This document shows, in pieces, positions 2,073 through 51,191 of a DNA stretch of 59,591 bases; the first letter of the stretch is position 1; the number at the start of each line of letters is the position of its first letter. A model generated the notes under the pieces. That model searched no databases. It was not told where the DNA came from and was given only the letters and a program-made list of their open reading frames with translations. Source of the stretch: a virus; IMG/VR virus record IMGVR_UViG_3300028823_000151, one strand, 5' to 3'. Both the position numbers and the translations under genes were made by a program.

Positions 2073-2141
2073 CAACTTCCCCTCCTGTTGTAATAAACAT
2101 TATACATAAGTTTATAATAGACTTGATTAAAGTCGAAATTA

Positions 2142-2759: not shown

Positions 2760-2761
2760 AT

Positions 2762-3829: not shown

Positions 3830-3831
3830 AG

Positions 3832-4689: not shown

Positions 4690-4706
4690 ATATTTCTCCT
4701 ATCATC

Positions 4707-5624
4707 TTATTCATATCCTTTTAAAAATGTATTAGTTCCAAGTATAATTTTCATACCTTCTTCAGCTGGTATATAAGGTTCCTCGCCTTCAGGTAAAAAT
4801 CTTTTCCAGTCTATTGTACAATCTAATCTTTCCTCATCCCATAGTCCGTTGTTCTTTATTTTAAGATCAACATACCCAGGAAATTCTTTACATAATTGTT
4901 TAGCGGATTCAGATTGTGCTTCTACTGTTCTTGTTTCTGAACATCCACCTTTGTATCCTGTTCCAGGGTCACCACAGCACCAACGAGCATTGCTTAAAGA
5001 CTTGTAACCTTTTGACAATAATTTTAATTGTACATAACGATCACTCATAAAAGGAACAGGCATTTCATTAATCTTTATACCTTCCTTTATTAAAGTTGGA
5101 ACATGGTAACAAACGAATCTTATAATTGGAATATTCTTAGGAAACATGTATTTAATTCCTTGGCTTCCAAGCTTCAATGGCAGTCCAACTATTGGGTACT
5201 CCTCATTACAAAGTTGTATACTTTCATAAAGTATTTTATTAAAGCAATCGTTTGCAATAAAGTCTTCATGCCTTGAAGTATATTTTGAAGATAGATTTTC
5301 ATCTCTGAAATACAAGTTTATATCATCGTCAATTATAAATAGGTATTCAGTAAAATTTTCCTTTGCTATATCAAAACACTTTTGTCTTTTATCTGCGATT
5401 GTAGAATCATCAGGTACAACAAAGACAGGTGCATAATTATCTACAGCTTTTCTATAGTCACTTGCTTCACTTTCTCGAACTATAATTTCGTATAGATAAT
5501 TAAAGCTAAAAGGGTCTATATGTTTCCATATACCTATTCTTTTTTCTATAAGATGTATCCTATTTCTAGATGGAATACTTATAGAATAATTTAAGTTTGT
5601 TAACTTATTATAAATTTCACTCAT
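4707..5624 (-). CDS. GT-A-fold glycosyltransferase-like protein (possible DNA-base glycosyl/other group transferase)
   Basis: YSISIPSRNR near the N-terminus and LFIIDDDINL (DxD) are GT-A hallmarks. They resemble phage IPSYKR-type/TET-associated glycosyltransferases. The assignment is weak. Confidence 0.4.
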   Translation of the reverse strand: MSEIYNKLTNLNYSISIPSRNRIHLIEKRIGIWKHIDPFSFNYLYEIIVRESEASDYRKAVDNYAPVFVVPDDSTIADKRQKCFDIAKENFTEYLFIIDDDINLYFRDENLSSKYTSRHEDFIANDCFNKILYESIQLCNEEYPIVGLPLKLGSQGIKYMFPKNIPIIRFVCYHVPTLIKEGIKINEMPVPFMSDRYVQLKLLSKGYKSLSNARWCCGDPGTGYKGGCSETRTVEAQSESAKQLCKEFPGYVDLKIKNNGLWDEERLDCTIDWKRFLPEGEEPYIPAEEGMKIILGTNTFLKGYE

Positions 5625-7038
5625 TCATAGACCTCCTAAAAATACTTTCGTAACCGAATTGTGAATTAGAATGTACAATATGTAAATTCTTTTTTGCTCT
5701 TGTTAAAGCTACATATAAACATCTTAATTCAGAATCCAAGGCTTCTACATTTCGTTCAAGGTTATTGTCAATAGTTTTAGTTACATCTAACAACAAAACA
5801 ACATTGTCAGCTTCACCACCCTTTACTCCATGTATTGTATTCACTTCACAATTTGTTTTAGTAACATCAACTTTGTTTTTAAACAAGTCTTTAAAATAAG
5901 TTTTCTCGTTTATATCAAAGTTCAGAGAATAAAACCACGGATCTTTAATGTTTATAATGTCTCTTAAATAAGGTTTAAGTGATAGGTCAGTATAAATTTG
6001 TTCAGGATCATACTTCCTATGTTTTTCATAAATCCTTACAGCGTTATACTTTTTCATATCAACACTATACCTGTGCTTATATTGAAAAGTCATTCCTAAC
6101 TCCCGTAACCTTTTTCCATATATAGATAAGTGATAATTATTTCTGGCTAGAAAGTAGTAAGATTCCTCATTGTTTATAGGTATCTCATCTACTTTATTAT
6201 AAAAATAAATTTCACCACCTTCTTGTACAGGGTCAAAGATTTTATCTACACGATTAGATATTTGTTTTGAAAATAGTTTAGAAAAATTTAGTATCTTTTG
6301 TCTAAGTCTGTACGATTTGTCCAACACAATGTTTTCACTATGTTTTGAAAGATTTAAAAAATGTTTTATATCAGAGCCTGACCATTCATATATTGCTTGG
6401 TCATCATCCCCTGCTATATAAACTTTGTTACAATTTCTAAAAGCTACTTCACAAAATTTCCATTGCAAGGATGTAAGGTCTTGTGCTTCATCAATTATAG
6501 CTACTTGAACAGGTAACGGTTTATCTTTTTTAATAAACTCTACAATTAAATCATCAAAATCCTTTACTCCCATTTCAGTTTTAAATCTTTCATAGTTATT
6601 GGAAACAAAATTTACTTTCTTTACATCTAAATCCTCCAACAATATTTCAGCGGTCCTTGGATTATTTTTCTTTAGAGAAACATAAAACAAATATTTATCA
6701 TCGTTATTGATAAAGTCCTCTGTGTAGTAACCTACAAAGTTCATACCCATTGCCCTTGAAAACTCTTTATAATTTTTCTTGGAAATCATTTCATACCTTG
6801 ACATTCCAAGGTCTCTAAAAGCTAATGAATGAATAGTTCTAAAATAAGGTAAGTCAGAATCTTTATAACCAAACTTTTCAGTAGCTCTATCTCTTCCTTC
6901 ATAACTTCCTTTCTTTGTAAAAGAAACAAAGGCAATTTTATCTGAATCATAATCATCCAAAATGTCAGAAAGTAAGTTCAATAAGTACGTTGTCTTTCCA
7001 CACCCTGGAGCTCCAAAGATCATTGTTGTTTCTTGCAT
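5617..7038 (-). CDS. superfamily 1 (UvrD/Rep-like) DNA helicase
   Basis: FGAPGCGKTT (Walker A), AIIDEAQD (motif II), AGDDDQAIYEW (III), TIHGVKGGEADNV (V) and LYVALTRAKKNLHIV (VI). The ATG at 7038 immediately follows the stop of the upstream gene; the track start at 7056 is a TTG. Confidence 0.85.
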   Translation of the reverse strand: MQETTMIFGAPGCGKTTYLLNLLSDILDDYDSDKIAFVSFTKKGSYEGRDRATEKFGYKDSDLPYFRTIHSLAFRDLGMSRYEMISKKNYKEFSRAMGMNFVGYYTEDFINNDDKYLFYVSLKKNNPRTAEILLEDLDVKKVNFVSNNYERFKTEMGVKDFDDLIVEFIKKDKPLPVQVAIIDEAQDLTSLQWKFCEVAFRNCNKVYIAGDDDQAIYEWSGSDIKHFLNLSKHSENIVLDKSYRLRQKILNFSKLFSKQISNRVDKIFDPVQEGGEIYFYNKVDEIPINNEESYYFLARNNYHLSIYGKRLRELGMTFQYKHRYSVDMKKYNAVRIYEKHRKYDPEQIYTDLSLKPYLRDIINIKDPWFYSLNFDINEKTYFKDLFKNKVDVTKTNCEVNTIHGVKGGEADNVVLLLDVTKTIDNNLERNVEALDSELRCLYVALTRAKKNLHIVHSNSQFGYESIFRRSMNE

Positions 7039-7039
7039 A

Positions 7040-7498
7040 TTACCTGTCCAGTCCAAACAAAGGTAGAGGATCCCTTAACATAACTCCACACTTTAAAGGG
7101 GATATAAAATCATTTGTACTATTATAATAAAAAGTTTTACCTCTTCTATCTATTAAAAGGTAAGTCACTAAAGATTTATCTTTGCTAAACTTAATTCCAT
7201 AAAGTCTTATTGGATATCTCACACTATAAGAATTAAATTTTCTAGGTCTATTCTTTTTGTGAAAACCTTTCTTATGATAATCTAAAAACAAATATTGGTA
7301 TGTTAGATACTCATAACTATTTCCAAGATACTTAACTCCGCTTGGATTATATTCAAACTGTTCACAAGTATCGTACTTAAACATTTGTCCTACACGTTCT
7401 GAAAGTTCATCAAATGAAGGGATAAAAACTTCACCTTTAATAGATACAGTAAACAAAAGAACTATAGTTATAATTGTAAAAAATATTATTTTCTTCAT
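7040..7498 (-). CDS. secreted or membrane-anchored hypothetical protein
   Basis: N-terminal MKKIIFFTIITIVLLFTVSIKG looks like a signal/anchor sequence. The gene is packed tightly between the primase and helicase genes. Confidence 0.55.
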   Translation of the reverse strand: MKKIIFFTIITIVLLFTVSIKGEVFIPSFDELSERVGQMFKYDTCEQFEYNPSGVKYLGNSYEYLTYQYLFLDYHKKGFHKKNRPRKFNSYSVRYPIRLYGIKFSKDKSLVTYLLIDRRGKTFYYNSTNDFISPLKCGVMLRDPLPLFGLDR

Positions 7499-7509: not shown

Positions 7510-9129
7510 TTAAAAATCTTCGATAAAGTCTGAAAAGTCTGGTTCAAAACTTTTTTCTACAGGTTCAAAGTAATTAAGTAATTCCTTCTTAACTGTAACC
7601 ACTCTAAGTTTTTTCCTTTTATCTTTTCCATTAGATTCTGTATTTACATCCTTATTCATTTCCGCTTTAAAGTCGTCTTTCAATAAACGATATACTTCTT
7701 GTTTATCAAAATTAAGCCCACGCTTTTTATCATTAACGTACACAACTAGATCCCTCATACGGAACCAATATTCTCCGCTAGAAGAATCAAAAAACACACG
7801 ACCATCTTCAATTTGTCTTCTGTTTTCAGCCGGGACTCTTCCAGTAATAAACTCGAATACACTAAGCTTCAATAATATTATTGGAGAAGTATCATCAGCT
7901 TCATCTATAGTTTTTACGTCAACTTCTTTTAGAGCTTGGTTAACCTTTTTAAACCATTCGTGTTGCTTTAACTTTGTAGGAATTTCATAAAGTTCCCTCA
8001 TACACAATTTAATGAAAGTGTCCTGTTTCAATAATTCATCCTCACTTTTAAAGACTAACCTTGTATATTTTTCTTGATCCTGTCTTCTAACTTCCCATTC
8101 ATAATAAGGTTGTTTAGATTTATATTGTGTTAGAACTCCACACTCTATAGTTGAAAAGTATCCGTCATCTTTTCCAACACCAAATTCCCTTTTACGACAT
8201 TCGTTCTTATTACAATAATCTGAACATGGAAAGTCATTACATTTATACTCGTAATCTCTTTTTCGTAAAGATGAAACAATTGTTTTTTCGACCTCCTTTT
8301 CTGATAATGGATATTTTAAATTTCCATTTGCCTCTAATAACTGTTGTTCAAAAAAGTCTTCATCCTTTTTCTTTAAATAAACACCTAACGAAAACAGAAA
8401 AATATTTCTACCTGAATTAAAATCCAACGGATCTAAAATTGTTATTGACTGCAAACAAGGTGGTGCGTCATTATAATCTAGATCATGTAGAAATTCTCTC
8501 ATATCCTTTACGGTTGTCATCTTTCCTTTTATATAACTAAGAGCTTCAGGTAAAGACAATTCTTGTCCTTCTTTTATTGCGACTTGTTTTGTCTCCTTAT
8601 GATTGTAGTAAGGTAAGTTAATTGCATTACCTATTTCTCCATCCCTTAGTTTAGTTTGCTTAGGAAAAATTTCAACAGTCCTATTTGTTTTGTTTTTAAC
8701 GTAAGTATCTATTGCTAATATAGAAGCCATACTTTTCATTATCTTTACAGCTTCTTTAGGACTCTGAGCTTGTTTGAAAAAAGAATACAAGTGCAATCCT
8801 CCACTTTTACTTTTGAAAGGAACCAATGGAAATTTATGTTTGTCTATAGCTTCAATAAAAGTTATCATGTCCTCATTATATATGTCAATATCTATAGCTG
8901 AGAAAAAACATTTACTGTCTTCAGATATGGGGATTATTCCCAGTCCTTCTTTACCTTCTAAATGTTTTTTATAATCTGTTATAGTTATTAACTTATCTTT
9001 TACAGTACGATACTCCCCTTGAAGCTTTCCATTTACCTCGTCTTTTCCGTACACTAATTTTAAATAATTGTTTTTAGAACCGGAAAATAATTTTTTAAAT
9101 TCCTCAACATCATGTGAATTTAGTGACAT
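7510..9129 (-). CDS. archaeo-eukaryotic primase (AEP/prim-pol) superfamily DNA primase with Cys-rich C-terminal region
   Basis: FFSAIDIDIY (DxD), SKSGGLHLYSFF (sGxGxH) and EIFPKQ. A later segment, CNDFPCSDYCNKNEC, looks like a zinc-binding region. Confidence 0.7.
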   Translation of the reverse strand: MSLNSHDVEEFKKLFSGSKNNYLKLVYGKDEVNGKLQGEYRTVKDKLITITDYKKHLEGKEGLGIIPISEDSKCFFSAIDIDIYNEDMITFIEAIDKHKFPLVPFKSKSGGLHLYSFFKQAQSPKEAVKIMKSMASILAIDTYVKNKTNRTVEIFPKQTKLRDGEIGNAINLPYYNHKETKQVAIKEGQELSLPEALSYIKGKMTTVKDMREFLHDLDYNDAPPCLQSITILDPLDFNSGRNIFLFSLGVYLKKKDEDFFEQQLLEANGNLKYPLSEKEVEKTIVSSLRKRDYEYKCNDFPCSDYCNKNECRKREFGVGKDDGYFSTIECGVLTQYKSKQPYYEWEVRRQDQEKYTRLVFKSEDELLKQDTFIKLCMRELYEIPTKLKQHEWFKKVNQALKEVDVKTIDEADDTSPIILLKLSVFEFITGRVPAENRRQIEDGRVFFDSSSGEYWFRMRDLVVYVNDKKRGLNFDKQEVYRLLKDDFKAEMNKDVNTESNGKDKRKKLRVVTVKKELLNYFEPVEKSFEPDFSDFIEDF

Positions 9130-9728: not shown

Positions 9729-10208
9729 TCATATCAATATGTTTTCCTCCATAAGTAAAGTATCCATTAACTCTCTTTTTGTAGTACATACACAAAAGTT
9801 TTTTGGACGTGGTAAATTTCTCTTAAATATTTCGTATACTAAATAAGGTAAGTGTCCTTCAGTTACATATACAGTATCTTTAGACAATAAGTAAACACAC
9901 AAAAGAGCTTTATCTAATTGTATAGAAACAACGTTACCTTCCAATAATGGAAAAGGCTTTTTGATATATGAATAAGATTCTCTTACAATTTCAATAAAGT
10001 TTGGAAGTTTCTTCCTTGAATAAATGTATATAACATTTCCAATATTTGAAGCTCGTATACCTTTAATTTTGCATTGCTCTGAAATATAATATGCCTGCCC
10101 AAAATATTCTGCACTGTAAGAAAATTTTGGATACCCGTCTGGAGCTTTATCTAATTTTGTGATTGCTACTATTTCATTTGTTCTTAATTCATTAGTTCCT
10201 TGTTTCAT
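9729..10208 (-). CDS. hypothetical protein
   Basis: The ATG at 10208 is preceded by AAGGAG at 7 nt (MKQGTNEL...). The track start at 10274 would overlap the upstream gene. Confidence 0.55.
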   Translation of the reverse strand: MKQGTNELRTNEIVAITKLDKAPDGYPKFSYSAEYFGQAYYISEQCKIKGIRASNIGNVIYIYSRKKLPNFIEIVRESYSYIKKPFPLLEGNVVSIQLDKALLCVYLLSKDTVYVTEGHLPYLVYEIFKRNLPRPKNFCVCTTKRELMDTLLMEENILI

Positions 10209-10218
10209 TATTTTCTCC

Positions 10219-10518
10219 TTAACTAAAATATTTTTTATTATAGTAAAGTAAAACATTGTACAGCCTATACACATAAAACAAAAACACTGTATTTATTAAA
10301 GGTATAACAGCGACAATAAAAGTTAACTTACAACTGCTAAGTAAGTTCTGACAATCCTCAATGTCCTTTGAATTACCTTGTCTGAACACTGGGATATTGT
10401 ACAACATAAACACAAGATCTTTATCCAAAATCTTTTTTCTTACAATAAATATAAGAATGATGCTTGCTAAATAAACTATAGCCAAACAATATGCGAATAC
10501 GAATTCAAATAGATTCAT
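10219..10518 (-). CDS. small membrane protein (2-3 TM)
   Basis: Hydrophobic segments FAYCLAIVYLASIILIFIV and FIVAVIPLINTVFLFYV. AAGGAGGG SD present. Confidence 0.5.
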   Translation of the reverse strand: MNLFEFVFAYCLAIVYLASIILIFIVRKKILDKDLVFMLYNIPVFRQGNSKDIEDCQNLLSSCKLTFIVAVIPLINTVFLFYVYRLYNVLLYYNKKYFS

Positions 10519-10527
10519 AAACCCTCC

Positions 10528-10818
10528 TTAATGTTTTCTATGTACTTCAACTTTACCAATTGAATTAGTTATAATTTCTTCTAGCAAAGAGTCCAATATA
10601 GAATTAACGGATAGATAAATGAATATACTAGACATAGCTCTAAACTTTTTGTCGTGTAACATCTTTGTACTTATTAACTCTATATTTCCAGTGTCGTTTG
10701 TTAGAGTATTCATCTTACTAATTTCACTAAAGAATTCAAGTATGTCTTCAAGGTCATACCCTAACCTTTCAAAGAAATCTTTTAACTCATCCATTTCCTG
10801 TTCTTCCAACTTATCCAT
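10528..10818 (-). CDS. acidic hypothetical protein
   Basis: AAGGAGG SD. The N-terminus is very acidic (MDKLEEQEMDELKDFFERLGYDLEDILEFF). Confidence 0.5.
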   Translation of the reverse strand: MDKLEEQEMDELKDFFERLGYDLEDILEFFSEISKMNTLTNDTGNIELISTKMLHDKKFRAMSSIFIYLSVNSILDSLLEEIITNSIGKVEVHRKH

Positions 10819-10999
10819 AAATCCTCCTTATAAAGTTCCGATTAATGTTACATAGTTTATTAAAGATTGGATCAGTCTGATAACATTGAACTGCTTCATC
10901 AATAGTTGTACCCCCTGTACACACCCTTTCAAGTTCTTCTCTAGGACCTTTGTACAGTAGGTACAAAAACAATAGATACTCTTTTTCTAAATCATTCAT
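10811..10999 (-). CDS. hypothetical protein
   Basis: Called from tight packing with its neighbours; the SD is weak. Confidence 0.4.
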   Translation of the reverse strand: MNDLEKEYLLFLYLLYKGPREELERVCTGGTTIDEAVQCYQTDPIFNKLCNINRNFIRRIYG

Positions 11000-11000
11000 A

Positions 11001-11708
11001 TCAACTTTCCGTGTTCAGTTCAATATTTTTATTTAAGTTAAACCTACTAAACAGATCCACTGGAAATAAAAAGTAAGAAAATTTACTTCTAGGATTCTGC
11101 TTAAACTTGTTTGAACTTTTTATTTTATCCATAAACAATTCAAAATCCATTATGTTTTGTATCACTTGACATCCAGCGGAATACCTACCTATCTTTGTAA
11201 CTTCCTTAATATCAGAAGCACGATGTATATTGATACCAAAATATCCACGCTGTACAATATCCTCATCGTCCCTTCTAAAATTATTATTTCCGTCTCTCCA
11301 TATTGTTACTGGTGCACCCCACTGTGCCAATGCTTCATAACCCCTATGTATTCCAACCATGTAGGCGTTACGGTGATAACCGTAACAAAGATGTGCAACA
11401 CCTTTTTTATCGCCAGCAGCTCCACCTACGAAAGTCCAATAAGCTCCAGGATCACATGTTCCATTAAAAAGAAAAACTAATTTATCAATGACGACACCTA
11501 TATAGTCATTAAATCCATCGGCCCTTTGTCCAGCTTCATTTCTTATACCAAATATATTTACCTCTTCCCATGGAGCTCCATTAGATAAATATAATTGTTT
11601 GATGTGTTTGTAAAAATATGTTTCACGATTTCCTATACTTCCATCCTTATTAAAGACAAAATTGTTTTTACTAGACAAACTCATAAGTCGATTCTTAACT
11701 TGTTTCAT
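11001..11708 (-). CDS. putative peptidoglycan-active enzyme with L,D-transpeptidase (YkuD/Tlde1)-like catalytic motif
   Basis: INIHRASDIKEVTKIGRYSAGCQV fits H-x14-S-x-G-C-[IV]-like YkuD spacing. AAGGAG SD present. The functional assignment is tentative. Confidence 0.4.
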   Translation of the reverse strand: MKQVKNRLMSLSSKNNFVFNKDGSIGNRETYFYKHIKQLYLSNGAPWEEVNIFGIRNEAGQRADGFNDYIGVVIDKLVFLFNGTCDPGAYWTFVGGAAGDKKGVAHLCYGYHRNAYMVGIHRGYEALAQWGAPVTIWRDGNNNFRRDDEDIVQRGYFGINIHRASDIKEVTKIGRYSAGCQVIQNIMDFELFMDKIKSSNKFKQNPRSKFSYFLFPVDLFSRFNLNKNIELNTES

Positions 11709-11952
11709 CTGAAATCTCCTTTAATAGTTGTTCACTATTTTCTTTCATGTACTTAGTTATTTTAATATAAGACTCCTCAACCTTTTTCTCTTCAAAGCCA
11801 CGAAATAAAACTCGTGCAGGGTAACAAGTGTTCTTATATTCATCAACAATTATTGCCCAACCAAATACATGTAGAATTTGATTTATAAACAGGAGCAATC
11901 CTGTTTCTCTAAATTCTTTCCAAGTTCTTTTTTCTTTCATCTTATTTTTCAT
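11695..11952 (-). CDS. hypothetical protein
   Basis: The ORF overlaps both flanking genes (14 nt and 4 nt). Confidence 0.5.
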   Translation of the reverse strand: MKNKMKEKRTWKEFRETGLLLFINQILHVFGWAIIVDEYKNTCYPARVLFRGFEEKKVEESYIKITKYMKENSEQLLKEISDETS

Positions 11953-12224
11953 AGTTCATATCCTCTTTGTTTAAATTCATCCCTTAACCAATCTAGAGAT
12001 TTTGATACAGGTCGTTTAGATATTTGTTCCAGCTCATAATCGAATGCCATTAAAGCTCCATCACTCATCATATTTGTATTTGCATTTAGATAAATAGATA
12101 AAGTTCTATAAGAAACGAACCCTTTATTTTCTAACATGTTAATACAATTACGAATATGATCCGTACTCATATCCTTAATGTACAGTATCCTTCCATCCTT
12201 TGTTTTCCAAGTTCTTTCTTCCAT
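11949..12224 (-). CDS. hypothetical phage protein
   Basis: The N-terminal pattern W.TKDGRILYIKDMSTDHIRNCI is common in small phage proteins. GGAG SD present. Confidence 0.55.
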   Translation of the reverse strand: MEERTWKTKDGRILYIKDMSTDHIRNCINMLENKGFVSYRTLSIYLNANTNMMSDGALMAFDYELEQISKRPVSKSLDWLRDEFKQRGYEL

Positions 12225-12228
12225 TAAT

Positions 12229-12507
12229 CTACTCCACTTTACTTATTTGAGTTGACCATCTTGCATCGTACTTTCTTAAATCAACCCAATTATCTTTTTC
12301 AATTAGAGCCTTAATTATTTTAGCATAAGCCTTTATTGCCTGTCTTAAATGTTTAAAGATTAATATCTTCTTAATTTCTAAAGCCATTCCATACTTTTCA
12401 TCTGTCCTATAATAAGTAAAACTTATGGAACGCTCCCTTACACTTATAGAAACATTCTTTTGTTCACGTATACTTAACAACGTTTCTTTTTCTGTTATTA
12501 AAATCAT
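12229..12507 (-). CDS. hypothetical protein
   Basis: AAGGAGGG SD and a 4-nt overlap with the next gene. Confidence 0.5.
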   Translation of the reverse strand: MILITEKETLLSIREQKNVSISVRERSISFTYYRTDEKYGMALEIKKILIFKHLRQAIKAYAKIIKALIEKDNWVDLRKYDARWSTQISKVE

Positions 12508-12695
12508 TTGGCCCTCCTTTTAAAAGGCTTTACTAAGACAGTTCCCCCGCAGGAGGGACACTTCCTTCTATAAAATAAAATAAAAGGAAGTGTTAATCCT
12601 CCAGTGAGGAGAGCAAACAGTATTGTTAGAAAGCCTATCTTTCTTTTAGCTTTGACTTCCTTTTTACATATTAAGCAATACTTTATCTGTGCCAT
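12504..12695 (-). CDS. small zinc-ribbon membrane protein
   Basis: CLIC...CPSC pairs flank a TM segment (FLTILFALLTGGLTLPFILF). Confidence 0.5.
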   Translation of the reverse strand: MAQIKYCLICKKEVKAKRKIGFLTILFALLTGGLTLPFILFYRRKCPSCGGTVLVKPFKRRAK

Positions 12696-12710
12696 TAAAT
12701 TATCCTTTAT

Positions 12711-14264
12711 CTATTTAGGTAAATTTACTTCATTCCTTGAGTCTGATGTGTCAAATAAATATCTGTATTCAACACCAACAGCAAAGGCAATATTCTTTTG
12801 TATGTACCTTTTGTTACCAGCAGCGTTTCGCTTAGGAAAATAATGTAAGTAACCACCTGAACCTGTTAATGATAAACATTTAAAAGGTGTTATCTTAATT
12901 CCACCTGAAATTGAAACGCATGGAATCTGTGCATCTAAATCACTATAAGTCTTTTTATTTGCACCTCCATAATAATAAGCTGTACCAGCTCCAAACTCTA
13001 GCCAGTCAAAAGGTTTTAACTTTAAACCAAATTGTCCGTCCCAGGCATCACTATAATTGTCATTATATCCCAGTATCTCACCACCTTCATCAGAATAAGA
13101 ATCAGCGAGCTTAACAAAATAATAATGACCTTGTATACCTACTGCAAGCCAACCAGTTGGACTCCATTCAATTCCAAGCCCAACCAGAGAAGGTAAATTG
13201 TAACTTCTACGTCTTCCATCCACAAACATACCTGCAAAACTTTTTCCATCCTTAACACTTTCTTTCCAAGACAGAACTGTTTGAGATTCGTAACGCAAAC
13301 CAATATTTAAACTTTCTACTGGCCTCCAGTGTAAACCTATAATTGCCCCTATTCCATGGGCTTCTTTACTTGCGTCTAATTCCACTAACTCAGTAGTAAT
13401 ATTTGCAGGGTTATTTACTTCATCTGCAATTTGATCAGCAACCATACATCCATCACTAACAGCAACTGGAGTTATTCGATACTTTGTCCACCCTGAATAC
13501 TCGTTCTTAGCGTATATGTATCTTATACTGAAAGAAGTAGCGAAAACTTTTTCAATAATTTGATAAGCTGTACCTATTGTCCCAGCTAAATACATACTGC
13601 TACCTTTAACTTCACCACCTAACCAATCAACTTTAGTGTTTGAAAAATCTAAATGCTGCTCAACATACTTCATTGAATTAAAGTCAATGGATGGATCATT
13701 CGGATTAAAAAAGTCAGATCCAATAATTGATCTTATTGTAGGCGCAAGCCAATATTCAGTAACAGACATGTGTGCTTTTTCAGCTAACCCTTTGTGTGCC
13801 TGTTCAAAAATAATATCCTGTGCTTGATCTGAGACCTTTGGACAATTTTCATCCAACATAGGAATACCATCTTTGTAATGTCTTGTACCACCACCAGCAG
13901 GAATTGTGAACGATGCAAACAATGACCAACGCCCTTTCTTAAAAACAAAGTAGGCATTTGGTATTGCTGGAACAGGTTCATTAGAACCGTAAGTCTTACC
14001 CTTGTATTCCATTCCACTGTAAGATACTGTGATACTTTGTACACTTACATCAAAGTGAATTCCATCTTTCATAAATGCTGTGCCTGCTGGATTAAAATTT
14101 GCTATGTCCGCCCCTTCTGTAGAACCTATCCTTATAGGATTCATTAAGTAGTTAGCAGACTGGTTGGGCAAATAATCAATATTTGCCATTGCACGTTTCG
14201 TATAAATAAGTTGAGTTAATGTTGCCATAACTAAAGACAACAAAATAAATCGTAATGTAACCAT
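12711..14264 (-). CDS. outer-membrane beta-barrel protein, FadL/TodX (OMPP1) family-like
   Basis: The ATG at 14264 has a GGGGGG SD. Signal peptide MVTLRFILLSLVMATLTQLIYTKRAMA is followed by NIDY. The N-terminal NFNPAGTAF matches the NPAG hatch motif of FadL. The rest shows long alternating beta-strand patterns with Gly/aromatic girdles and a terminal strand AFAVGVEYRY. Confidence 0.65.
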   Translation of the reverse strand: MVTLRFILLSLVMATLTQLIYTKRAMANIDYLPNQSANYLMNPIRIGSTEGADIANFNPAGTAFMKDGIHFDVSVQSITVSYSGMEYKGKTYGSNEPVPAIPNAYFVFKKGRWSLFASFTIPAGGGTRHYKDGIPMLDENCPKVSDQAQDIIFEQAHKGLAEKAHMSVTEYWLAPTIRSIIGSDFFNPNDPSIDFNSMKYVEQHLDFSNTKVDWLGGEVKGSSMYLAGTIGTAYQIIEKVFATSFSIRYIYAKNEYSGWTKYRITPVAVSDGCMVADQIADEVNNPANITTELVELDASKEAHGIGAIIGLHWRPVESLNIGLRYESQTVLSWKESVKDGKSFAGMFVDGRRRSYNLPSLVGLGIEWSPTGWLAVGIQGHYYFVKLADSYSDEGGEILGYNDNYSDAWDGQFGLKLKPFDWLEFGAGTAYYYGGANKKTYSDLDAQIPCVSISGGIKITPFKCLSLTGSGGYLHYFPKRNAAGNKRYIQKNIAFAVGVEYRYLFDTSDSRNEVNLPK

Positions 14265-14281
14265 TGGAACCCCCCAATTTG

Positions 14282-14464
14282 TTATTTTCTCCAAACACGA
14301 ATTCCAATTCCAAAAACGATCCATCTAAAATAAACATACTTAGAATCTTCTACTCCGATGTGTTTTGCAATTGAAATTGTTGGAACAATGAATACTTCTT
14401 TGCACAGCTCATCATCCGTATACAAATTCCAAAACACAATCTTACTTTTTAGAAAGTGTTTCAT
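14282..14464 (-). CDS. hypothetical small protein
   Basis: Called only from packing and its 4-nt overlap with the upstream ORF. Confidence 0.35.
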   Translation of the reverse strand: MKHFLKSKIVFWNLYTDDELCKEVFIVPTISIAKHIGVEDSKYVYFRWIVFGIGIRVWRK

Positions 14465-14658
14465 TTCCCCTCCTTTATTCTACCTAGATTTTTAACTTGA
14501 AAAAAGTATCCGACTAAACTCAAGCGAATACCTGTTTTAGATTTATACTTTAATTCCCACAGAAACATTTTCTTTGCATACAAAGAACCAACCCCCATTC
14601 CTACGAGAAATATAAAGCAACACATTGGAATAAATTCTTTTAATAATTCTACGGTCAT
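14461..14658 (-). CDS. small membrane protein
   Basis: GGAGGAG SD and TM segment MCCFIFLVGMGVGSLY. Confidence 0.45.
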   Translation of the reverse strand: MTVELLKEFIPMCCFIFLVGMGVGSLYAKKMFLWELKYKSKTGIRLSLVGYFFQVKNLGRIKEGK

Positions 14659-15032
14659 TCAGGCTCCTCCATTTCATAATGTTTACCGTACTGAACAATC
14701 ATCCTACTATTAAAATAATCCATATTACGTTCTAAGTTTCTTATTTCTAATTTTAATTTAGTGTACTGTTCAGTAACGTTTAGTAATAATACAAACGAAA
14801 CAATGTTAAGTAACAACATTGTAAAGACTATCATCATACAAAGAGACAGAAATCTTTCCTGTCTCTTTGTTACTTGTATTTCTTTTTGTTTCAAGGTGTT
14901 ATACATAAAATATTGTTTTGGTATACTATGACCACAAAACGAACACCACTTATATTTTTGTTTTCCACTTTTATCGTCCTTAACTATGTACATTCTATTC
15001 TGTTTACAGTTAGGACAGATTTCGTGTTTCAT
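14655..15032 (-). CDS. zinc-ribbon plus single-TM protein
   Basis: The ATG at 15032 has AGGAG 5 nt upstream. CPNC...CSFCGH, then TM LSLCMMIVFTMLLLNIVSFVLLL, then a coiled-coil tail. Confidence 0.5.
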   Translation of the reverse strand: MKHEICPNCKQNRMYIVKDDKSGKQKYKWCSFCGHSIPKQYFMYNTLKQKEIQVTKRQERFLSLCMMIVFTMLLLNIVSFVLLLNVTEQYTKLKLEIRNLERNMDYFNSRMIVQYGKHYEMEEPE

Positions 15033-15040
15033 AATAACTC

Positions 15041-15328
15041 CTACCAAGAATTTTCGTATCGTCTCATTATATCCACAGCAAACTTTATTTCTTCTATTTC
15101 AGATTCAACGTCATCAACTGAAGAAGGGCAACTTAAATTTGGTTTTATCTTGTTTAGTAAATCTTCATATTCCTCAGCTTTTTGTTCCATTATAATCGCT
15201 GCTTGCATAACAATATCTGAAGTTATATTGTCGGACATTAACTTTGGTTTTGGTGGAAGAGGACGTGGAGCCTTTGGTATATTGTTCAATCCACCTTTGT
15301 TACTTTTACCTTCTTTTAATGTAGTCAT
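15041..15328 (-). CDS. hypothetical protein
   Basis: AAGGAGG SD and a 4-nt overlap with the upstream gene. Confidence 0.5.
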   Translation of the reverse strand: MTTLKEGKSNKGGLNNIPKAPRPLPPKPKLMSDNITSDIVMQAAIIMEQKAEEYEDLLNKIKPNLSCPSSVDDVESEIEEIKFAVDIMRRYENSW

Positions 15329-15654
15329 ATTTGCCTCCTTTCAAAATCTGAAATTGTTGTTTCTTCACAGTTGTTACACAAAAAATTTAATCTTGCTAAT
15401 TCATATTCTTTGTTTGTAATTAACCAACCACAATTTTGGCATTGCCAAAATGAATTTCGTTCCTTCTTTTGTTCTTCAGACAATTCCATAAGAAATTCCA
15501 TTACTGTATCGTGATCAACTTTTGCAACTGCTTGTAAGTACTCGATCATAAACTCTGTACTTTTGTCGTGGAAGTCACACTCCTCTTTTGCCATTACTAA
15601 CTGAGCGTATTTCTCATCACTTATTTCCATACTATTCCTCCTTATACCGGCCAA
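15325..15654 (-). CDS. zinc-finger hypothetical protein
   Basis: AAGGAGG SD and the Cys pairs CQNCGW...CNNCE. Confidence 0.5.
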   Translation of the reverse strand: MAGIRRNSMEISDEKYAQLVMAKEECDFHDKSTEFMIEYLQAVAKVDHDTVMEFLMELSEEQKKERNSFWQCQNCGWLITNKEYELARLNFLCNNCEETTISDFERRQI

Positions 15655-16079
15655 ACGTAAGGTAAGTTTCGTTGAGTATCAGGCCACAAAGGTAAATAAA
15701 ATTCTTCATACTTAGCTATTAAGTTTGAACGATGAGCTTCAATAAAGTTATCATCTATCCAATATGGTTTAACAGGTTCATCATCGTTAACAAGTGTTAA
15801 TAAATATTTGTAATGTTTATAACATTTCTCATTTTTGTAACCTCGCTTAACCCATTCTAACATAATATCATATAAGTAAACTTTAATAAGGTATGATTCA
15901 TAACCCTTCCACATTTTAACAGCCGAGTGGTTTGCCCAACCGTTAGTTGTAAGTTTAGTCTCTGAAAGTAATAAACAACGAGCAATCTGTATAGCTTCAA
16001 CTCGTTGCTTACCTAACCGCCTATAATCAAGACATTCAGCAGTATTGGAAATATTGTGATCAGTGATAAATGTTTGCAT
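15642..16079 (-). CDS. putative pyrimidine-dimer DNA glycosylase-like (endonuclease V/Pyr_excise-like) protein
   Basis: MQTF...AECLDYRRLGKQRVEAIQIARCL...WANHSAVKMWKGYE...WVKRGYKN matches my recollection of a small family annotated this way. Not verified. Confidence 0.45.
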   Translation of the reverse strand: MQTFITDHNISNTAECLDYRRLGKQRVEAIQIARCLLLSETKLTTNGWANHSAVKMWKGYESYLIKVYLYDIMLEWVKRGYKNEKCYKHYKYLLTLVNDDEPVKPYWIDDNFIEAHRSNLIAKYEEFYLPLWPDTQRNLPYVWPV

Positions 16080-16089
16080 AAATCCTCCT

Positions 16090-16197
16090 TTATATTATTG
16101 TTAAATATATAGACAGTATCAATAATACTATCGCTGCAGAACAAATACAAGAAATAATTATGAATGCTAGAAAAAACTTTAACCTTTTTCTAATCAT
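16090..16197 (-). CDS. 35-aa single-TM peptide (below the ORF-track cutoff)
   Basis: My own translation gives MIRKRLKFFLAFIIISCICSAAIVLLILSIYLTII*. The ATG overlaps the upstream stop region and fills an otherwise empty 110-nt gap. Confidence 0.35.
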   Translation of the reverse strand: MIRKRLKFFLAFIIISCICSAAIVLLILSIYLTII

Positions 16198-16405
16198 TGT
16201 TTTTGTCCTTAAAAGGTTTATACTTACTGAAGCCGAACACCCTGTATCCGTTATAGTTTTTTAGAAAGTCTATACAGCCCCAAGACTTATTTCCAAGGTG
16301 ACGAGCGAACGATATGTCAATAACCTTTTTCTTTTGATCAATCGAAACGTTTTTAGTTTCTAAGGACCCTATTGCTTTTTGTAGTGTTAGTTCACGCCCT
16401 TTCAC
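16190..16405 (-). CDS. hypothetical protein
   Basis: 4-nt overlap with the upstream ORF. Confidence 0.45.
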   Translation of the reverse strand: MKGRELTLQKAIGSLETKNVSIDQKKKVIDISFARHLGNKSWGCIDFLKNYNGYRVFGFSKYKPFKDKNND

Positions 16406-16620
16406 TCGTTACCCCCTGTAGAAATAAAGCCCCTTAACCGGACACTATAACCCTTTCGTATTATAGAAGTAATTGTATCCGTTAACTCTTCTCTTCCCTT
16501 ACCTGTCATTACTTGTAAATCCTGTAATGTGGCTAATCGCTGATGGGCAATGCGATAATTGTTAACGGTAGTCAACAATTTTTGTTCGTCGGTTGTTAAC
16601 GTACTAATATGGTTCATCAT
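16402..16620 (-). CDS. hypothetical protein, possible winged-helix DNA-binding regulator; first gene of the leftward operon
   Basis: AAGGAGGA abuts the double ATG. QRLATLQDLQVMTGKGREELTDTITSIIRKGY is HTH-like. Confidence 0.4.
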   Translation of the reverse strand: MMNHISTLTTDEQKLLTTVNNYRIAHQRLATLQDLQVMTGKGREELTDTITSIIRKGYSVRLRGFISTGGNE

Positions 16621-16656
16621 TCCTCCTTATAGTATTTTAGTATTTAATAAACTAAT

Positions 16657-16706
16657 ATTATACTATATTATAGTATACATTATATACTGTATAATAACAT
16701 TATACT
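16657..16706 (-). promoter_or_regulatory. candidate -10 boxes (AGTATAAT on the minus strand) for the leftward operon starting at 16620
   Basis: attatact at 16657-16664 and 16699-16706 reads AGTATAAT on the minus strand. I saw no convincing -35. Confidence 0.3.
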
Positions 16707-16868
16707 ATTGTAAAGAACTTTTTATTAAAGGTTTATACTGTATATACCGATAAATATAAGTTAGCTGTCACTAACTTTAAACAGGGGTTAGGTAAAAAGT
16801 TACTCAATTTTTAGACAGTAAGGAAGTGTAATTGCTTAATGAGTAACTTTTTAGAACATAACCTATTA

Positions 16869-16928
16869 TAGTGTTCAAGGCATATAATGTACAGTAATTA
16901 CCGTGCTTTGTGGTTTTAGTGTTCAAGG
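16869..16928 (+). repeat. direct repeat TAGTGTTCAAGG x2 (16869-16880, 16917-16928)
   Basis: Two exact 12-mers spaced 48 bp apart. The related (A)CTTTTATAGTGTT occurs at 17492-17505 and 52261-52274. Confidence 0.8.
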
Positions 16929-17102
16929 ACTTGTACTTTATTAGTGTTTAGTTATTTAGTATCTAGTAAAAATACATTATTCAGTTTTTGTACATTTGTG
17001 AGTAACTTATATAAGGAAAAGTTACTCAATCTACTCACAAATAAATGTTTAGTAGGCATGTAACCGCCCTTAATTACCGGCTGTTAAATGCCCTTTTTTA
17101 GC

Positions 17103-17128
17103 TGAGTAACTTGAGTAACTTGAGTAGC
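17103..17128 (+). repeat. three tandem 9-bp iterons TGAGTAACT-TGAGTAACT-TGAGTAGCA
   Basis: Read directly from ctgagtaacttgagtaacttgagtagcac. Confidence 0.9.
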
Positions 17129-17144
17129 ACACTCTGAGAAAACC

Positions 17145-17166
17145 TATTTTAGCAGTTGCTAAAATA
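17145..17166. repeat. 22-bp perfect palindrome TATTTTAGCA-GT-TGCTAAAATA
   Basis: Arms 17145-17154 and 17157-17166 are exact reverse complements. The palindrome lies between the plus-oriented and minus-oriented iteron groups. Confidence 0.9.
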
Positions 17167-17643
17167 CCAAAATGAAGCTTTTGTTACTCAGCTACTCAGG
17201 ACAAACTACATAAAAGTGTCAGGGCATGTAACATACGGTAAATACCGTTAGTTACAAGCCTTAACCCCTGAGTAATTTTGAGTAGAACTGAGTAACTTTT
17301 TACTTTACCCCCTGTTTAAATGTGCTTCATTTTGTACGAAATCTCGGTACTCATTTTCATGGCTACTGGGATTTTAAAAATCCATTTGTGCCTGACATAC
17401 TATAAAAGTGTGATTGCTAAAAAACCCTCATGCCAGTACGTTCGGTTTCGCCAGCATAATCGTATTTTGGCCATTTCGTTTAACGAATTATACTTTTATA
17501 GTGTTCATGATTTTTTGGATCCATTTCGCTCTCGCTCAAGTGTTAACAGGGGTTAACCCACTTGGGATAAGGAAGCAAACTTGAGGGATACCGAGAGGCA
17601 GACGAACAGAAATCTTGGACTATAACGCCTTATAGGAAGGGAA

Positions 17644-17674
17644 TAAAAAAACCCTGTACAATTGTACAGGGTTT
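17644..17674 (-). terminator. rho-independent terminator of gene 17709..18182
   Basis: aaaccctgtacaattgtacagggttt is a perfect palindrome (17649-17674). On the minus strand it is followed by a T-run, which reads as aaaaaaa on the plus strand. Confidence 0.8.
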
Positions 17675-17708
17675 AATTTAAAACGTGGAGGTGTCTTAAC
17701 GACTGCTA

Positions 17709-18182
17709 TTATTTAAGACCTTTATCTTTATTTAATGTAACCTTGTTTTCGGCTGGTCTATAACCTTGCCAGTTAGCAGGAGCGTCTTTTCCTTTTCCTT
17801 CTAACTTGTATGTACCTGTTTTAGGATCGAAAGAAATCCATACCCTATTTTCAGGCTCAACTTTAAGGATAGACTTACGGATAATACTTGCACATTCTTT
17901 ACGTCCCATTTTAAATTGTTTGAAAACTTCATCTTCAGAAACACTTTTCTTTTCGGTAAGAAAATCAATAAACTTGGACATCGCTGAACTTGATCCGCCA
18001 CCTGTAGCTATACCATATAGTGAAGGGCGAATTTTTGCAAGAGCGTCTTTGTACTTAGGATCTGATTGTTTGTCAACAAGCTCTTTAATTATTGCGAAAC
18101 TTTCTTTTTTCATCTGAGCCTTTGATTTACCTTCAGTCTTTGCAGCTCCTACAGTTTGTTCAGTTTTCTTTTCGTTTAACAT
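17709..18182 (-). CDS. hypothetical Lys-rich protein, monocistronic unit with its own terminator
   Basis: AAGGAG SD at 7 nt. A perfect palindromic terminator lies 35 nt downstream. Confidence 0.55.
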   Translation of the reverse strand: MLNEKKTEQTVGAAKTEGKSKAQMKKESFAIIKELVDKQSDPKYKDALAKIRPSLYGIATGGGSSSAMSKFIDFLTEKKSVSEDEVFKQFKMGRKECASIIRKSILKVEPENRVWISFDPKTGTYKLEGKGKDAPANWQGYRPAENKVTLNKDKGLK

Positions 18183-20888: not shown

Positions 20889-21062
20889 ATGGCCGAGTTC
20901 AGAGCAAGTATTGAAGCTACAACTACTAGAAGAAAAATTAGAAAGGAAGATATGGATTCCTTTAAGGACTATAGTTCACATGAAGAAAAACTATCGCCAC
21001 TTGTTACAAGGGCAATAGAAAAAGGAAAAAGATTTCTAGAGGAGATAACAAGAGACGGATGA
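20889..21062 (+). CDS. hypothetical protein
   Basis: The ATG at 20889 follows GAAGGAGG (20876-20883); the track start at 20874 is a GTG. The stop overlaps the terL start (ATGA). Confidence 0.45.
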   Translation: MAEFRASIEATTTRRKIRKEDMDSFKDYSSHEEKLSPLVTRAIEKGKRFLEEITRDG

Positions 21063-22555
21063 ACCGATCTTTGGAAAGCCTTTCTGTTCAGGAAAGGATA
21101 GTTTCTGAGTTAGCAAGGAGAGAATTAGCTAGAAGAGATTTTTTAGAGTTTGCAAATTTTACAATGGATGAGTTTGAACCTACTTGGTTCCATGAGACTT
21201 ATTATAAGATACTTAATTATTTTTCTTTAGGTATGTTAAAGAAACTCATGGTTACAATAGGTCCACAAAATGGAAAAAGTGAAGGTAGTTCTAGAAGACT
21301 ACCTGCCTACATGTTAGGAAAGAATCCAAACTTAAAGATAGGCTTGGCAAGCTTCAACTCTTCTTTCGCACAGAAGTTTTCAATGGATGTACAAAGGATA
21401 ATTGTCGATTATCCTTATTACAATTTGTTTCCAGAAACTACCTTACAATCAACAGAATTTTCACCGGATACAAGAGGAAAGGAATACAAAAAGACCCAAA
21501 GCCTTTTTGAAATTGTTAATCATCAAGGGGCAATGAAATCAGTTGGTAGGGGTGGAGCCTTAACAGGTGAAAAGATAGACCTTATGATATTGGATGACCT
21601 TTATAAAGATTATTCAGAAGGAAACAGTCCAATTGTACGTGAAGCAGTTATCAATTGGTACTTGTCTGTTGTTCTTAAAAGGTTACATAATAAAAGCCAG
21701 CAGTTAATTGTTTTCACAAGATGGCATGAAGAAGACCTTATAGGGTATTTAGAAAAGAAAACAAAAGTTAAGACCTTAGAAAGCTGGAAGGATTTAGAAT
21801 ACTTTATAGACAATCCACAAGTTTGGTGTAAGATTAATTTTCCTACACTAAAGATTGGTGAACCTACTGAACTTGATCCAAGGGAACCTGGAGAAGCTAT
21901 TTGGCCTAACCGACATAGTCGAGAAGACAAAGAAGCTGAAAGGGAAATGGATGAAGAAAAGTTTGATTCATTGGAACAGGGTGACCCGAAACCTAAAAGA
22001 GGATTGCTTTATCAAAAAGGATTTAACCTTTATAAAATACGTCCTTCATATTTTAGGGAAATTAAAAACTATACAGACTCAGCAGATGAAGGGACAGATT
22101 ATTTATGTTCTATTTGTTATGGAGTAGGAACAGACAATAAGATTTATATACTTGACGTACTGTACACGCAAGCACCACAAGAAGAAACGGAACCTTTAAC
22201 AGCTGAATTATTGTCAATGAATAAAGTTACCTTTGCAGATTTTGAAAGTAACAATGGAGGAAAAGGTTTTGCTAGATCAGTAGATAGATTATTAAACAGA
22301 AAAATAATTATCGAATGGTTCCATCAAAGTGGGAATAAGGAAAGTAGGATTATAACTAACGCTCCAGCGTGTATGAGATATATATTGTTTCCAGAAAACT
22401 GGACAACAATGTGGCCTGAATTTTCAAGGGACCTTTTACGATTTAGAAAAAACTTTAAATCCAATAAACATAACGATGGACCTGATGCTTTAACAGGAGT
22501 CTTAGAATACAGTGGATTATTAACAGAAGTTAATGATGCATTAAATAGTTGGTAA
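21059..22555 (+). CDS. terL: terminase large subunit
   Basis: N-terminal FLEFANF...WFHETYYKIL, Walker A-like GPQNGKSEGS and Walker B DLMILDD. The C-terminal nuclease-like region and the 498-aa size both fit. Confidence 0.85.
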   Translation: MNRSLESLSVQERIVSELARRELARRDFLEFANFTMDEFEPTWFHETYYKILNYFSLGMLKKLMVTIGPQNGKSEGSSRRLPAYMLGKNPNLKIGLASFNSSFAQKFSMDVQRIIVDYPYYNLFPETTLQSTEFSPDTRGKEYKKTQSLFEIVNHQGAMKSVGRGGALTGEKIDLMILDDLYKDYSEGNSPIVREAVINWYLSVVLKRLHNKSQQLIVFTRWHEEDLIGYLEKKTKVKTLESWKDLEYFIDNPQVWCKINFPTLKIGEPTELDPREPGEAIWPNRHSREDKEAEREMDEEKFDSLEQGDPKPKRGLLYQKGFNLYKIRPSYFREIKNYTDSADEGTDYLCSICYGVGTDNKIYILDVLYTQAPQEETEPLTAELLSMNKVTFADFESNNGGKGFARSVDRLLNRKIIIEWFHQSGNKESRIITNAPACMRYILFPENWTTMWPEFSRDLLRFRKNFKSNKHNDGPDALTGVLEYSGLLTEVNDALNSW

Positions 22556-29075: not shown

Positions 29076-29078
29076 ATT

Positions 29079-51125: not shown

Positions 51126-51191
51126 TAGGATATTATATATGTTTTACTTTAATAGAGGAAACAAAAATGATTGTATAGAAGAGGAAGAAAT

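Follow-up and report, generated by a model that had tools for sequence, protein, structure and literature searches.

Is the long open reading frame (ORF) at positions 12711 to 14264 on the minus strand of IMG/VR virus record IMGVR_UViG_3300028823_000151 an outer-membrane channel gene carried by a phage, and if so, what would it bring to the infection? The encoded protein of 517 amino acids was originally predicted, from the 59,591 nucleotides of the record (hereafter the window), to be a phage-encoded outer-membrane β-barrel of the FadL/TodX type, and this identification has been upheld by a family profile, by hhalign, by an AlphaFold2 (AF2) model and by Foldseek. It is close to certain that the gene specifies a functional-looking member of the FadL/TodX/TbuX channels, through which bacteria import fatty acids and other hydrophobic molecules (a signal peptide, a hatch some 40 residues long that bears an Asn-Pro-Ala (NPA) motif, and a barrel of 14 strands), and that it was captured long ago as an accessory gene by a myovirus-like phage, the genome of which is complete and the lifestyle probably virulent. 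The identification is solid, and it puts a new and divergent member of a known family in an unusual setting.

Coding Sequence and Signal Peptide

The longest frame at the locus spans 12711-14324 on the minus strand (537 amino acids), and the 517-residue form begins at an ATG at position 14264. The latter start is preferred because the upstream ORF ends with a TAA at 14284-14282, because a G-run lies 5′ of this ATG (Table 1) and because AGGAGG-like Shine–Dalgarno (SD) sites are common on the strand, where they precede most genes; the site of the barrel gene is of the same type, and the corresponding sequence of the upstream gene is AGGAGGGG. The second member of the protein's 90% cluster is merely the 537-residue alternative start call. 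A chance origin of the frame can be excluded because stops are expected in about 7% of codons at about 33% GC, which by our arithmetic gives a probability of about 1e-17 for 517 open codons; homologs were also found at E 1e-115. An identical protein is recorded in three assemblies (contigs of 59,477, 59,588 and 59,591 bp, possibly from the same reads), which makes an assembly chimera unlikely.

The N-terminus, MVTLRFILLSLVMATLTQLIYTKRAMA/NIDY, consists of a basic residue, about 15 hydrophobic residues—also picked up as a hydrophobic segment in a scan of the transmembrane type—and an A-x-A site. When aligned by hhalign, the predicted cleavage site AMA/N pairs with the AWS/A end of the N-terminal leader of Escherichia coli FadL, which we take to be the FadL signal-peptidase site. 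Judged by sequence, the precursor appears to carry both a Sec signal peptide and a C-terminal β-signal. The ORF and its sequence thus agree with what had been described at the outset, namely a 517-residue protein with a leader ending in AMA/N and an NFNPAGTAF motif, which occupies residues 56-64.

Family Assignment and Predicted Fold

A search of 5.8 billion proteins returned 19 relatives besides the phage protein itself, the four closest being 36-43% identical to it over 95-99% of its length. When the 20 aligned sequences were scanned singly, PF03349 (OMPP1/FadL/TodX) was matched by 16 of them (best E 2.4e-18); N58-P59-A60 is invariant in all 20, and the phage protein retains all 11 family-invariant residues. 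Searched against the PDB, the family profile matches TbuX at 1.1e-15 (profile positions 55-415 of 437), CymD at 4e-13, the FadL proteins of Pseudomonas aeruginosa and E. coli at about 1e-10 (FadL 4e-10) and TodX at 8e-8. The NPA of the phage protein is paired with that of TbuX in the profile match and with that of E. coli FadL in the hhalign comparison (97.2% probability, 400 columns). An exhaustive hidden Markov model search yielded 5,425 clusters at 50% identity (E ≤ 1e-3), so that the subfamily is large in cells. Membership of PF03349 is transitive, running through the homologs and the profile, and the phage protein would belong to a divergent subfamily. The nearest relatives are cellular outer-membrane proteins of the FadL family and not tail proteins. 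Tail-protein relatives, or a predicted structure without a closed barrel, had been named with the original prediction as results that would refute it, and both checks came out in its favour.

The AF2 model built from the alignment has a mean predicted local distance difference test score (pLDDT) of 82.9 and a predicted TM-score (pTM) of 0.77. It shows a short helical/coil N-terminal region followed by 14 long strands, the connections of which alternate between long loops and turns of 2-5 residues; in the model, the loops would be extracellular and the turns periplasmic. The best 23 Foldseek matches in the PDB are all FadL-family entries, led by FadL (E 1.6e-18; TM-score normalised to FadL 0.73-0.78), with CymD, TbuX and TodX next at E 1e-15 to 1e-12. 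The predicted fold is a 14-stranded antiparallel β-barrel, the closure of which follows from the superpositions, and it bears at its N-terminus the hatch with the NPA motif that is typical of the family.

Conservation is unevenly distributed over this architecture. The hatch is the best conserved long segment in comparison with the four closest homologs (55-60% identity, 45% of positions invariant), and a short motif in loop L4 is nearly identical among these proteins (Table 1); its DG and the downstream P358 are conserved across the family, and strand order would place it at the barrel mouth. The strands are 39-46% identical to the four closest homologs, while L2, L3, L7 and the tail mostly show about 10-30% identity (L3 reaches 50% with the closest one). 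The helical insertion in L2 is common only to the four closest cellular homologs, where it is shorter (alignment columns 187-290; heavily gapped, 20-25% identity). In the last strand, G497-x-x-Y500-x-Y502 resembles a β-signal and corresponds to the G-x-E-Y-x-F C-termini of distant members, with 13 further residues following it. Distant members end in EY[KSR]F, whereas the five-member clade formed by the phage protein and its four closest homologs has 13-30 extra residues. This C-terminal tail is presumed to be periplasmic. The focus of conservation on plug and barrel mouth suggests that the gated channel itself has been under selection and that channel function has been retained.

The phage protein shares with the long-chain fatty-acid channel FadL of E. 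coli (PDB 1T16 and mutants) the 14-stranded barrel, the N-terminal hatch, the aligned NPA motif and the aligned predicted cleavage sites; NPA begins at mature residue +31 in the phage protein and at what we take to be N33 in FadL. The two differ in that their identity in the structural alignment is only about 13%, in the L2 helical insertion of 80 residues, in the 13-residue tail and in the phage origin of the gene. TbuX, TodX and CymD (PDB 3BRY, 3BRZ, 6Z34), channels for monoaromatic hydrocarbons (toluene in the case of TbuX) and the best sequence-profile matches, align from the NPA almost to the C-terminus. They belong to aromatic-degradation operons of Proteobacteria, whereas no such neighbourhood is seen in the phage or around its closest cellular homologs. 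The four closest homologs, uncharacterised proteins from metagenome-assembled genomes (MAGs) that are grouped here with the FadL-like proteins of Spirochaetota, share both the L2 insertion and the C-terminal tail with the phage protein. In Treponema pallidum, the FadL orthologs TP0548, TP0856, TP0858, TP0859 and TP0865 keep NPA (or NAA), and three of them have C-terminal periplasmic extensions (PMC8407342). Likened to these by description only, the phage tail is short and disordered and does not form a helical bundle. Compact and divergent among FadL variants, and equipped with a large lid of helices in L2, the protein may be of interest for structure–function work on lateral-diffusion channels.

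Rarity Among Viruses

The original prediction regarded a gene of this kind as very unusual phage cargo, and for the FadL class this holds in every collection searched. None of 20 family members matched any of 38,880 PHROGs, and in 50,697 GenBank phage records tblastn gave no hit with either the barrel protein or a typical family member as the query. IMG/VR pattern scans with three queries of one to six peptide patterns each, a procedure of limited sensitivity, were negative as well, and no FadL-fold viral protein is present in BFVD, where the best TM-score to the model is 0.31. With E. coli FadL as the tblastn query, four GenBank phage records were retrieved (two short fragments, the end of the GER2 record and an 'UNVERIFIED' faecal scaffold), none of which was accepted as verified. 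The protein is therefore the sole phage-borne example of the FadL type in the collections searched. What has to be softened is the generality of the claim: BFVD lists OmpC-like, SusC-like, OprO/P-like, autotransporter and small 8-stranded barrels from uncultured phages, plus one barrel from Vibrio phage nt-1, so that the carriage of outer-membrane barrels by phages is in itself nothing new.

Two of the four records are worth a remark of their own. MG710528.1 (Escherichia phage GER2) contains, at 816-2153 of the fetched locus, a full-length FadL homolog that is 77% identical to K-12 FadL. It sits in the unannotated last 8 kb of an 88-kb temperate Stx-phage record, which is probably flanking or non-phage DNA. 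MT836749.1 has a homolog of 27% identity at 10577-11761 of its 'UNVERIFIED' faecal phage scaffold. Both homologs could represent flanking bacterial DNA or a real prophage-borne fadL.

λ Lom, the PA-2 Lc porin and NmpC of DLP12 are phage-encoded outer-membrane proteins, and such classical examples are morons expressed from prophages with a promoter and a terminator of their own. Together with the BFVD barrels they resemble the present case in being phage-borne genes for barrels assembled by the host; none has the FadL fold (TM-score in BFVD ≤ 0.31). Unlike the classical morons, the barrel gene lies in a tight, co-oriented run of genes, in a phage without detected lysogeny genes. It is separated from its neighbours on both sides by gaps of only 15-17 nt and is flanked by no promoter-like or terminator-like site; promoter-like sites were fewer than expected from shuffled sequence. 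A moron, or lysogenic-conversion, architecture was rejected on these grounds, no integrase or repressor having been found in the scanned ORFs.

A 'viral fadL' has been listed before among the auxiliary metabolic genes (AMGs) of ocean viromes, where a virus-encoded fatty-acid transporter was proposed to reprogram the host (Hurwitz et al. 2013, PMC4053976). The assignments, which involved SP6, K1E, SIO1 and others, were based on similarity, and the SIO1 case has been re-annotated as a GNAT acetyltransferase (PMC6775973). The tblastn search with E. coli FadL finds none of the SP6, K1E or SIO1-type phages, and the 2013 claim is not borne out. In contrast to these entries, fold and family have been demonstrated for the barrel described here, which makes it a validated example to replace the disputed 'viral fadL' AMG entries still circulating in virome annotation. 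The gene would qualify as a viral auxiliary metabolic or transport gene, that is, a cellular-type gene among bona fide viral genes, because the genome bears phage hallmarks, phage genes flank it, GC content at third codon positions (GC3) and SD type are shared with the phage, and its relatives are cellular.

An Accessory Gene of Cellular Descent

The first 144 nt of the window are identical to the last 144 (1-144 and 59448-59591), leaving 59,447 unique bp, so that the genome is complete and either circular or terminally redundant. It is that of a myovirus-like tailed phage (Table 1). The phage had been judged apparently virulent, and the evidence is consistent with this. Neither an integrase nor a repressor was found among the ORFs scanned (those of at least 180 amino acids left unscanned are 9729-10274, which is conserved in related phages, and several in the structural module), and genes for replication and DNA modification are part of the phage genome itself. 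Its lifestyle is probably virulent.

For comparison, four IMG/VR contigs with a primase 49-54% identical to that of the window were used. These related phages keep both flanks of the barrel's surroundings (17709-18182 and 9729-10274) and the whole replication/nucleotide cluster, including primase, helicase and others, at 45-60% amino acid identity. Between 10219 and 16620, no window gene has a match in any of them, and a family-profile search of all fetched related-phage loci found no barrel. Of the four relatives, one has an equivalent slot of 7.5 kb and the other three have slots of 1.3-1.9 kb, compared with 7.4 kb here; in the relatives, the slot is occupied by helix-turn-helix (HTH), Bro-N, pentapeptide-repeat, ligase-like and SprT-like genes. 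The barrel gene is accessory cargo in a hypervariable block. One of the relatives' slots contains a pentapeptide-repeat protein (PF00805, E 3e-70, locus positions 4787-5452) beside Bro-N and HTH genes. Pentapeptide-repeat proteins can act as DNA mimics, and this one might be an anti-defence or DNA-mimic candidate.

In cells, the closest homologs of the barrel gene are stand-alone genes in ordinary chromosomal neighbourhoods, like E. coli fadL, on contigs of 17 kb to 1.5 Mb. A metagenome scan for relatives yielded cellular contigs only, and a scan of GTDB genomes yielded one Spirochaetes MAG. Two of the closest homologs come from Spirochaetota MAGs, and a marker gene that shares a contig with the closest homolog has named best matches that are mostly Spirochaetota (62-69% identity). 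In the tree, the phage protein branches at the base of the four closest cellular proteins on a longer branch, with 41-46% identity on trimmed columns. The GC3 of the gene is 0.236, within the range of the phage genes (about 0.19-0.40, most of them 0.19-0.30). Given this identity, the basal branch and the phage-like GC3, the capture is old and the gene adapted to the phage. By sequence relationship, it derives from a cellular lineage whose living members are mostly Spirochaetota.

That the host is diderm, as had been proposed, follows from the dependence of such a barrel on Sec and on the β-barrel assembly machinery (BAM), and the closest relatives point to Spirochaetota. Judged by these relatives, the host is possibly a spirochaete; the strong use of SD sites would fit spirochaetes and would argue against a Bacteroidota host. 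The gene provides a host clue for an uncultured phage lineage—a diderm, probably of the Spirochaetota—and few spirochaete phages are known to us.

Possible Roles During Infection

Three roles had been suggested for the barrel: superinfection exclusion, uptake of a hydrophobic substrate and envelope remodelling for lysis. The first two stand as candidates, while the third is weakened by contigs that carry homologs of the neighbouring endolysin and no barrel. By analogy with FadL, the protein may be an uptake channel for a hydrophobic substrate during infection, a reading to which we assign a probability of roughly 0.45. Channel function is the most economical interpretation because the hatch, the NPA and the conserved mouth motif have been kept. 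In FadL, the substrate binds at L3/L4, the hatch rearranges in an NPA-dependent manner and the substrate leaves through a kink in strand 3 (PMC8407342). In the phage-infected cell, the barrel gene would be co-transcribed with its neighbours, as the short gaps and the lack of a promoter or terminator of its own suggest. The host's Sec system would then export the precursor, and its BAM would place the barrel in the outer membrane. There it would act like FadL, an NPA-dependent movement of the hatch opening a path by which the substrate enters the cell envelope. The infected cell might thereby take up more of a lipid or carbon source by which phage production is limited, and the barrel would be an auxiliary transport gene with a logic comparable to that of phage-borne PstS.

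In its fuller form, the proposal, which is put forward only tentatively, is that the phage is virulent, infects an uncultured spirochaete or another diderm, and equips the host outer membrane with a FadL-type channel of its own through which a hydrophobic nutrient or signal is imported. If true, it would provide the first demonstration that a channel for lipid uptake across the outer membrane can serve as a viral auxiliary gene, and the first genuine 'viral fadL' after apparent misannotations. A channel that is made and works in infection would extend phage auxiliary genes to the outer-membrane uptake of hydrophobic compounds and provide a specific instance, open to experiment, in which a lytic phage alters the lipid or carbon supply of its host. 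In a more exotic variant, the diverged surface loops would re-key the cell surface against competing phages with transport left intact.

Several points weigh against an uptake channel. Taken alone, the phage protein matches neither PF03349 (at E up to 1) nor any other Pfam, NCBIfam or PHROG model, and a single-sequence phmmer search of the PDB returns TbuX alone at a sub-threshold E of 0.4. The kink through which substrate leaves FadL has an uncertain counterpart: hhalign puts the FadL SNYG (strand 3 kink, G103) near an invariant I-P-A-G-G-G...Y-K-D-G133 of strand 3, in a gapped alignment without confidence marks. Only one of the phages compared carries the barrel gene, which is therefore dispensable for the phage lineage. 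The neighbourhoods of the closest cellular homologs give no clue to a substrate, and no fatty-acid-activating or β-oxidation gene was identified among the scanned phage ORFs, a set that does not cover every ORF. A new outer-membrane protein takes time to be made and inserted, which would limit its benefit in a short lytic cycle. What has been shown is the fold, the family, the motifs, the phage context, the accessory status and the cellular origin; expression, localisation, substrate and benefit to the phage are all inferred.

The alternative that survives best, unlikely as it appears, is a remodelling of the cell surface in the service of superinfection exclusion: the barrel would replace or dilute a FadL-type receptor of the host, or its diverged loops would be unbindable by competitors or by the phage's own progeny, with transport being secondary. 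FadL was named in the original prediction as a phage receptor in E. coli, in agreement with its RefSeq product name, 'bacteriophage T2 receptor'. L2, L3 and L7 are the surface loops most diverged from the cellular relatives, and the hypervariable accessory block that holds the gene is of a kind in which phages store genes for exclusion and host takeover. A precedent exists in the temperate phage PA-2, the Lc porin of which replaces OmpC. Such precedents are expressed from prophages, however, and no lysogeny genes were found in the scanned ORFs here. Moreover, receptors present in the membrane beforehand cannot be removed by the synthesis of a new barrel, and the strongest conservation lies in the hatch and mouth motif rather than in the loops, which argues for selection on the channel. 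Should exclusion prove to be the role, it would represent a new way to edit the phage-receptor landscape.

It is improbable that the gene is a neutral passenger, in the form of recently acquired host DNA, or a product of chimeric assembly. A single carrier phage and a location in an accessory block, which collects transient genes, would be expected of a passenger. The frame is intact with every family-invariant residue in place, though, GC3 and SD site match those of the phage, and the gaps on both sides are as tight as noted above; the best cellular relative is just 41-46% identical, so that the capture was not recent, and the recurrence of the same contig in three assemblies, possibly of the same reads, counts against an artefact.

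Little credence can be given to a part in lysis, in which the barrel would help to breach the outer membrane late in infection in place of a spanin. The gene lies 1.0 kb upstream of a putative endolysin gene and is surrounded by genes for small membrane proteins, and the window yielded no o-spanin candidate of the lipobox type. On the other hand, the contigs with the closest homologs of the endolysin (52-58% identity) have no barrel nearby, in agreement with the profile search of the fetched loci, and of the four genes that separate the barrel from the endolysin, three lack a strong hydrophobic segment. Other small proteins with transmembrane segments are encoded after the tail genes at 51139-51455, the usual position of lysis genes, and a hatch with an NPA that is conserved throughout the family speaks for gated transport rather than for membrane disruption. 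We know of no outer-membrane barrel that acts in phage lysis. Membership of a lysis cassette was rejected in view of the absence of a barrel beside the endolysin homologs, the lack of a lipobox and the gated-channel architecture.

A partnership with the host BAM, by which the barrel would modulate outer-membrane protein assembly like the FadL-fold subunits of Bacteroidota, is very improbable: Foldseek does match the BAM chains of P. gingivalis, F. johnsoniae and B. thetaiotaomicron (PDB 9HJM F, 9N2D B, 9HIV F; the same 14-stranded fold, E about 1e-12, TMt 0.62-0.70), but these rank below all FadL, TbuX, TodX and CymD entries except the TodX deletion mutant 6z37, sequence profiles link the phage protein to TbuX and FadL and not to the BAM chains, and the AGGAGG-type SD sites and spirochaetal relatives misfit a Bacteroidota host.

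Neighbouring Genes and the Phage Genome

The coordinates of the barrel gene, its parts, its neighbours and the hallmark genes of the phage are compiled in Table 1.

Table 1. Features of the window, with residue numbers referring to the 517-residue barrel precursor
Feature	Position	Strand	Remarks
FadL-family outer-membrane barrel precursor, coding sequence, 517 amino acids	12711-14264	-	Stop codon 12711-12713; PF03349 homologs, profile, hhalign, AF2, Foldseek
SD-like G-run GGGGGG	14270-14275	-	5 nt upstream of ATG 14264
Signal peptide, residues 1-27 (MVTLRFILLSLVMATLTQLIYTKRAMA)	14184-14264	-	Predicted cleavage AMA/N; n/h/c regions and A-x-A site, by sequence
N-terminal hatch (plug), residues 28-67	14064-14183	-	Precedes first strand; contains invariant NPA
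NPA motif, residues 58-60	14085-14093	-	Invariant in 20/20 homologs
Helical insertion in extracellular loop L2, about 80 residues (131-210)	13635-13874	-	DSSP helices 135-204; pLDDT 54-75
Loop L4 motif FAGMFVDGR, residues 343-351	13212-13238	-	89-100% identical to four closest homologs
C-terminal tail, residues 504-517	12714-12755	-	After last strand (485-503); pLDDT < 50
Hypervariable accessory block of leftward replication-side cluster, 7.4 kb	10275-17708	-	Holds barrel gene
Putative endolysin	11001-11708	-	1.0 kb downstream of barrel gene; phrog_3000 1e-30, phrog_33083 'endolysin' 4e-19
CxxC-transmembrane-CxxC membrane zinc-ribbon protein, 63 amino acids	12504-12695	-	15 nt downstream of barrel gene; no Pfam match
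Small ORF with transmembrane segment	14461-14658		
CxxC...CxxC protein with transmembrane segment and coiled coil	14655-15047	-	
CxxC...CxxC protein	15325-15654	-	
Nucleotide/DNA-modification set	794-5624	-	Thymidylate-synthase-like, dCMP deaminase, YfbR-like 5'-deoxynucleotidase, radical SAM, phrog_2396, beta-glucosyl-HMC-alpha-glucosyltransferase-like
Helicase	5617-7056		One of two
Primase	7510-9129		
Large terminase	21059-22555		
Portal	22568-23848		
Head-morphogenesis protein	24098-25237		
Prohead protease	32849-34585		
Major capsid protein	35365-36324		
Tail sheath	38801-40663		
Tape measure	41876-43618		
Baseplate wedge	46697-48148		
Ligase	52296-53582		
Helicase	55904-57550		One of two
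DNA polymerase	58388-59551		

The run of small membrane and zinc-ribbon genes in which the barrel gene was said to lie is made up of the four small ORFs on either side of it in Table 1. The three paired-CxxC proteins among them gave no significant family match. The putative endolysin has 267 homologs, mostly on phage-sized contigs and in some cases fused to PG_binding_1 (PF01471), and H162...S177-x-G-C180 is invariant among them. The H...S-x-G-C pattern resembles the catalytic motif of YkuD L,D-transpeptidases. The AF2 model of the protein has a pLDDT of 88.6, and its best Foldseek matches in the PDB are weak ones to L,D-transpeptidases (E about 0.1, TM-score 0.25). No Pfam match was obtained, and sequence and profile searches of the PDB were empty. 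The protein may have a divergent or new peptidoglycan-hydrolase fold and represent an undescribed type of endolysin.

The same block encodes a pyrimidine-dimer DNA glycosylase of the T4 endonuclease V/DenV type (PF03013, E 4.5e-18; 15642-16079, minus strand). Between the start of the block's genes and the gene at 17709-18182 lies a segment of about 1.1 kb without a convincing ORF (16621-17708), which contains a strong terminator-like hairpin at 17674-17649 on the minus strand (11-bp stem and T-run) and several sigma-70-like sites at 16.7-16.9 kb, with no Rfam match. This segment could serve the leftward cluster as an origin or as a region of promoters or other regulatory sites. Scans of the whole window for tRNAs and Rfam families were empty.

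Elsewhere in the genome, the cluster at 794-5624 suggests hypermodified DNA, possibly with a glycosylated hydroxymethyl-pyrimidine, and the related IMG/VR phages retain most of it, some of them with duplications. Two very large plus-strand ORFs (990 and 1047 amino acids) lie at 26103-32222 between the head-morphogenesis gene and the prohead protease; the former has a short N-terminal match to tail proteins only, and the latter has no PHROG match. The true holin region could lie in the small plus-strand ORFs with transmembrane segments at 51139-51455, behind the tail genes. The large gene that closes the tail cluster (49917-51125, plus strand) contains BNR/sortilin-type repeats and possibly encodes a receptor- or glycan-binding protein.

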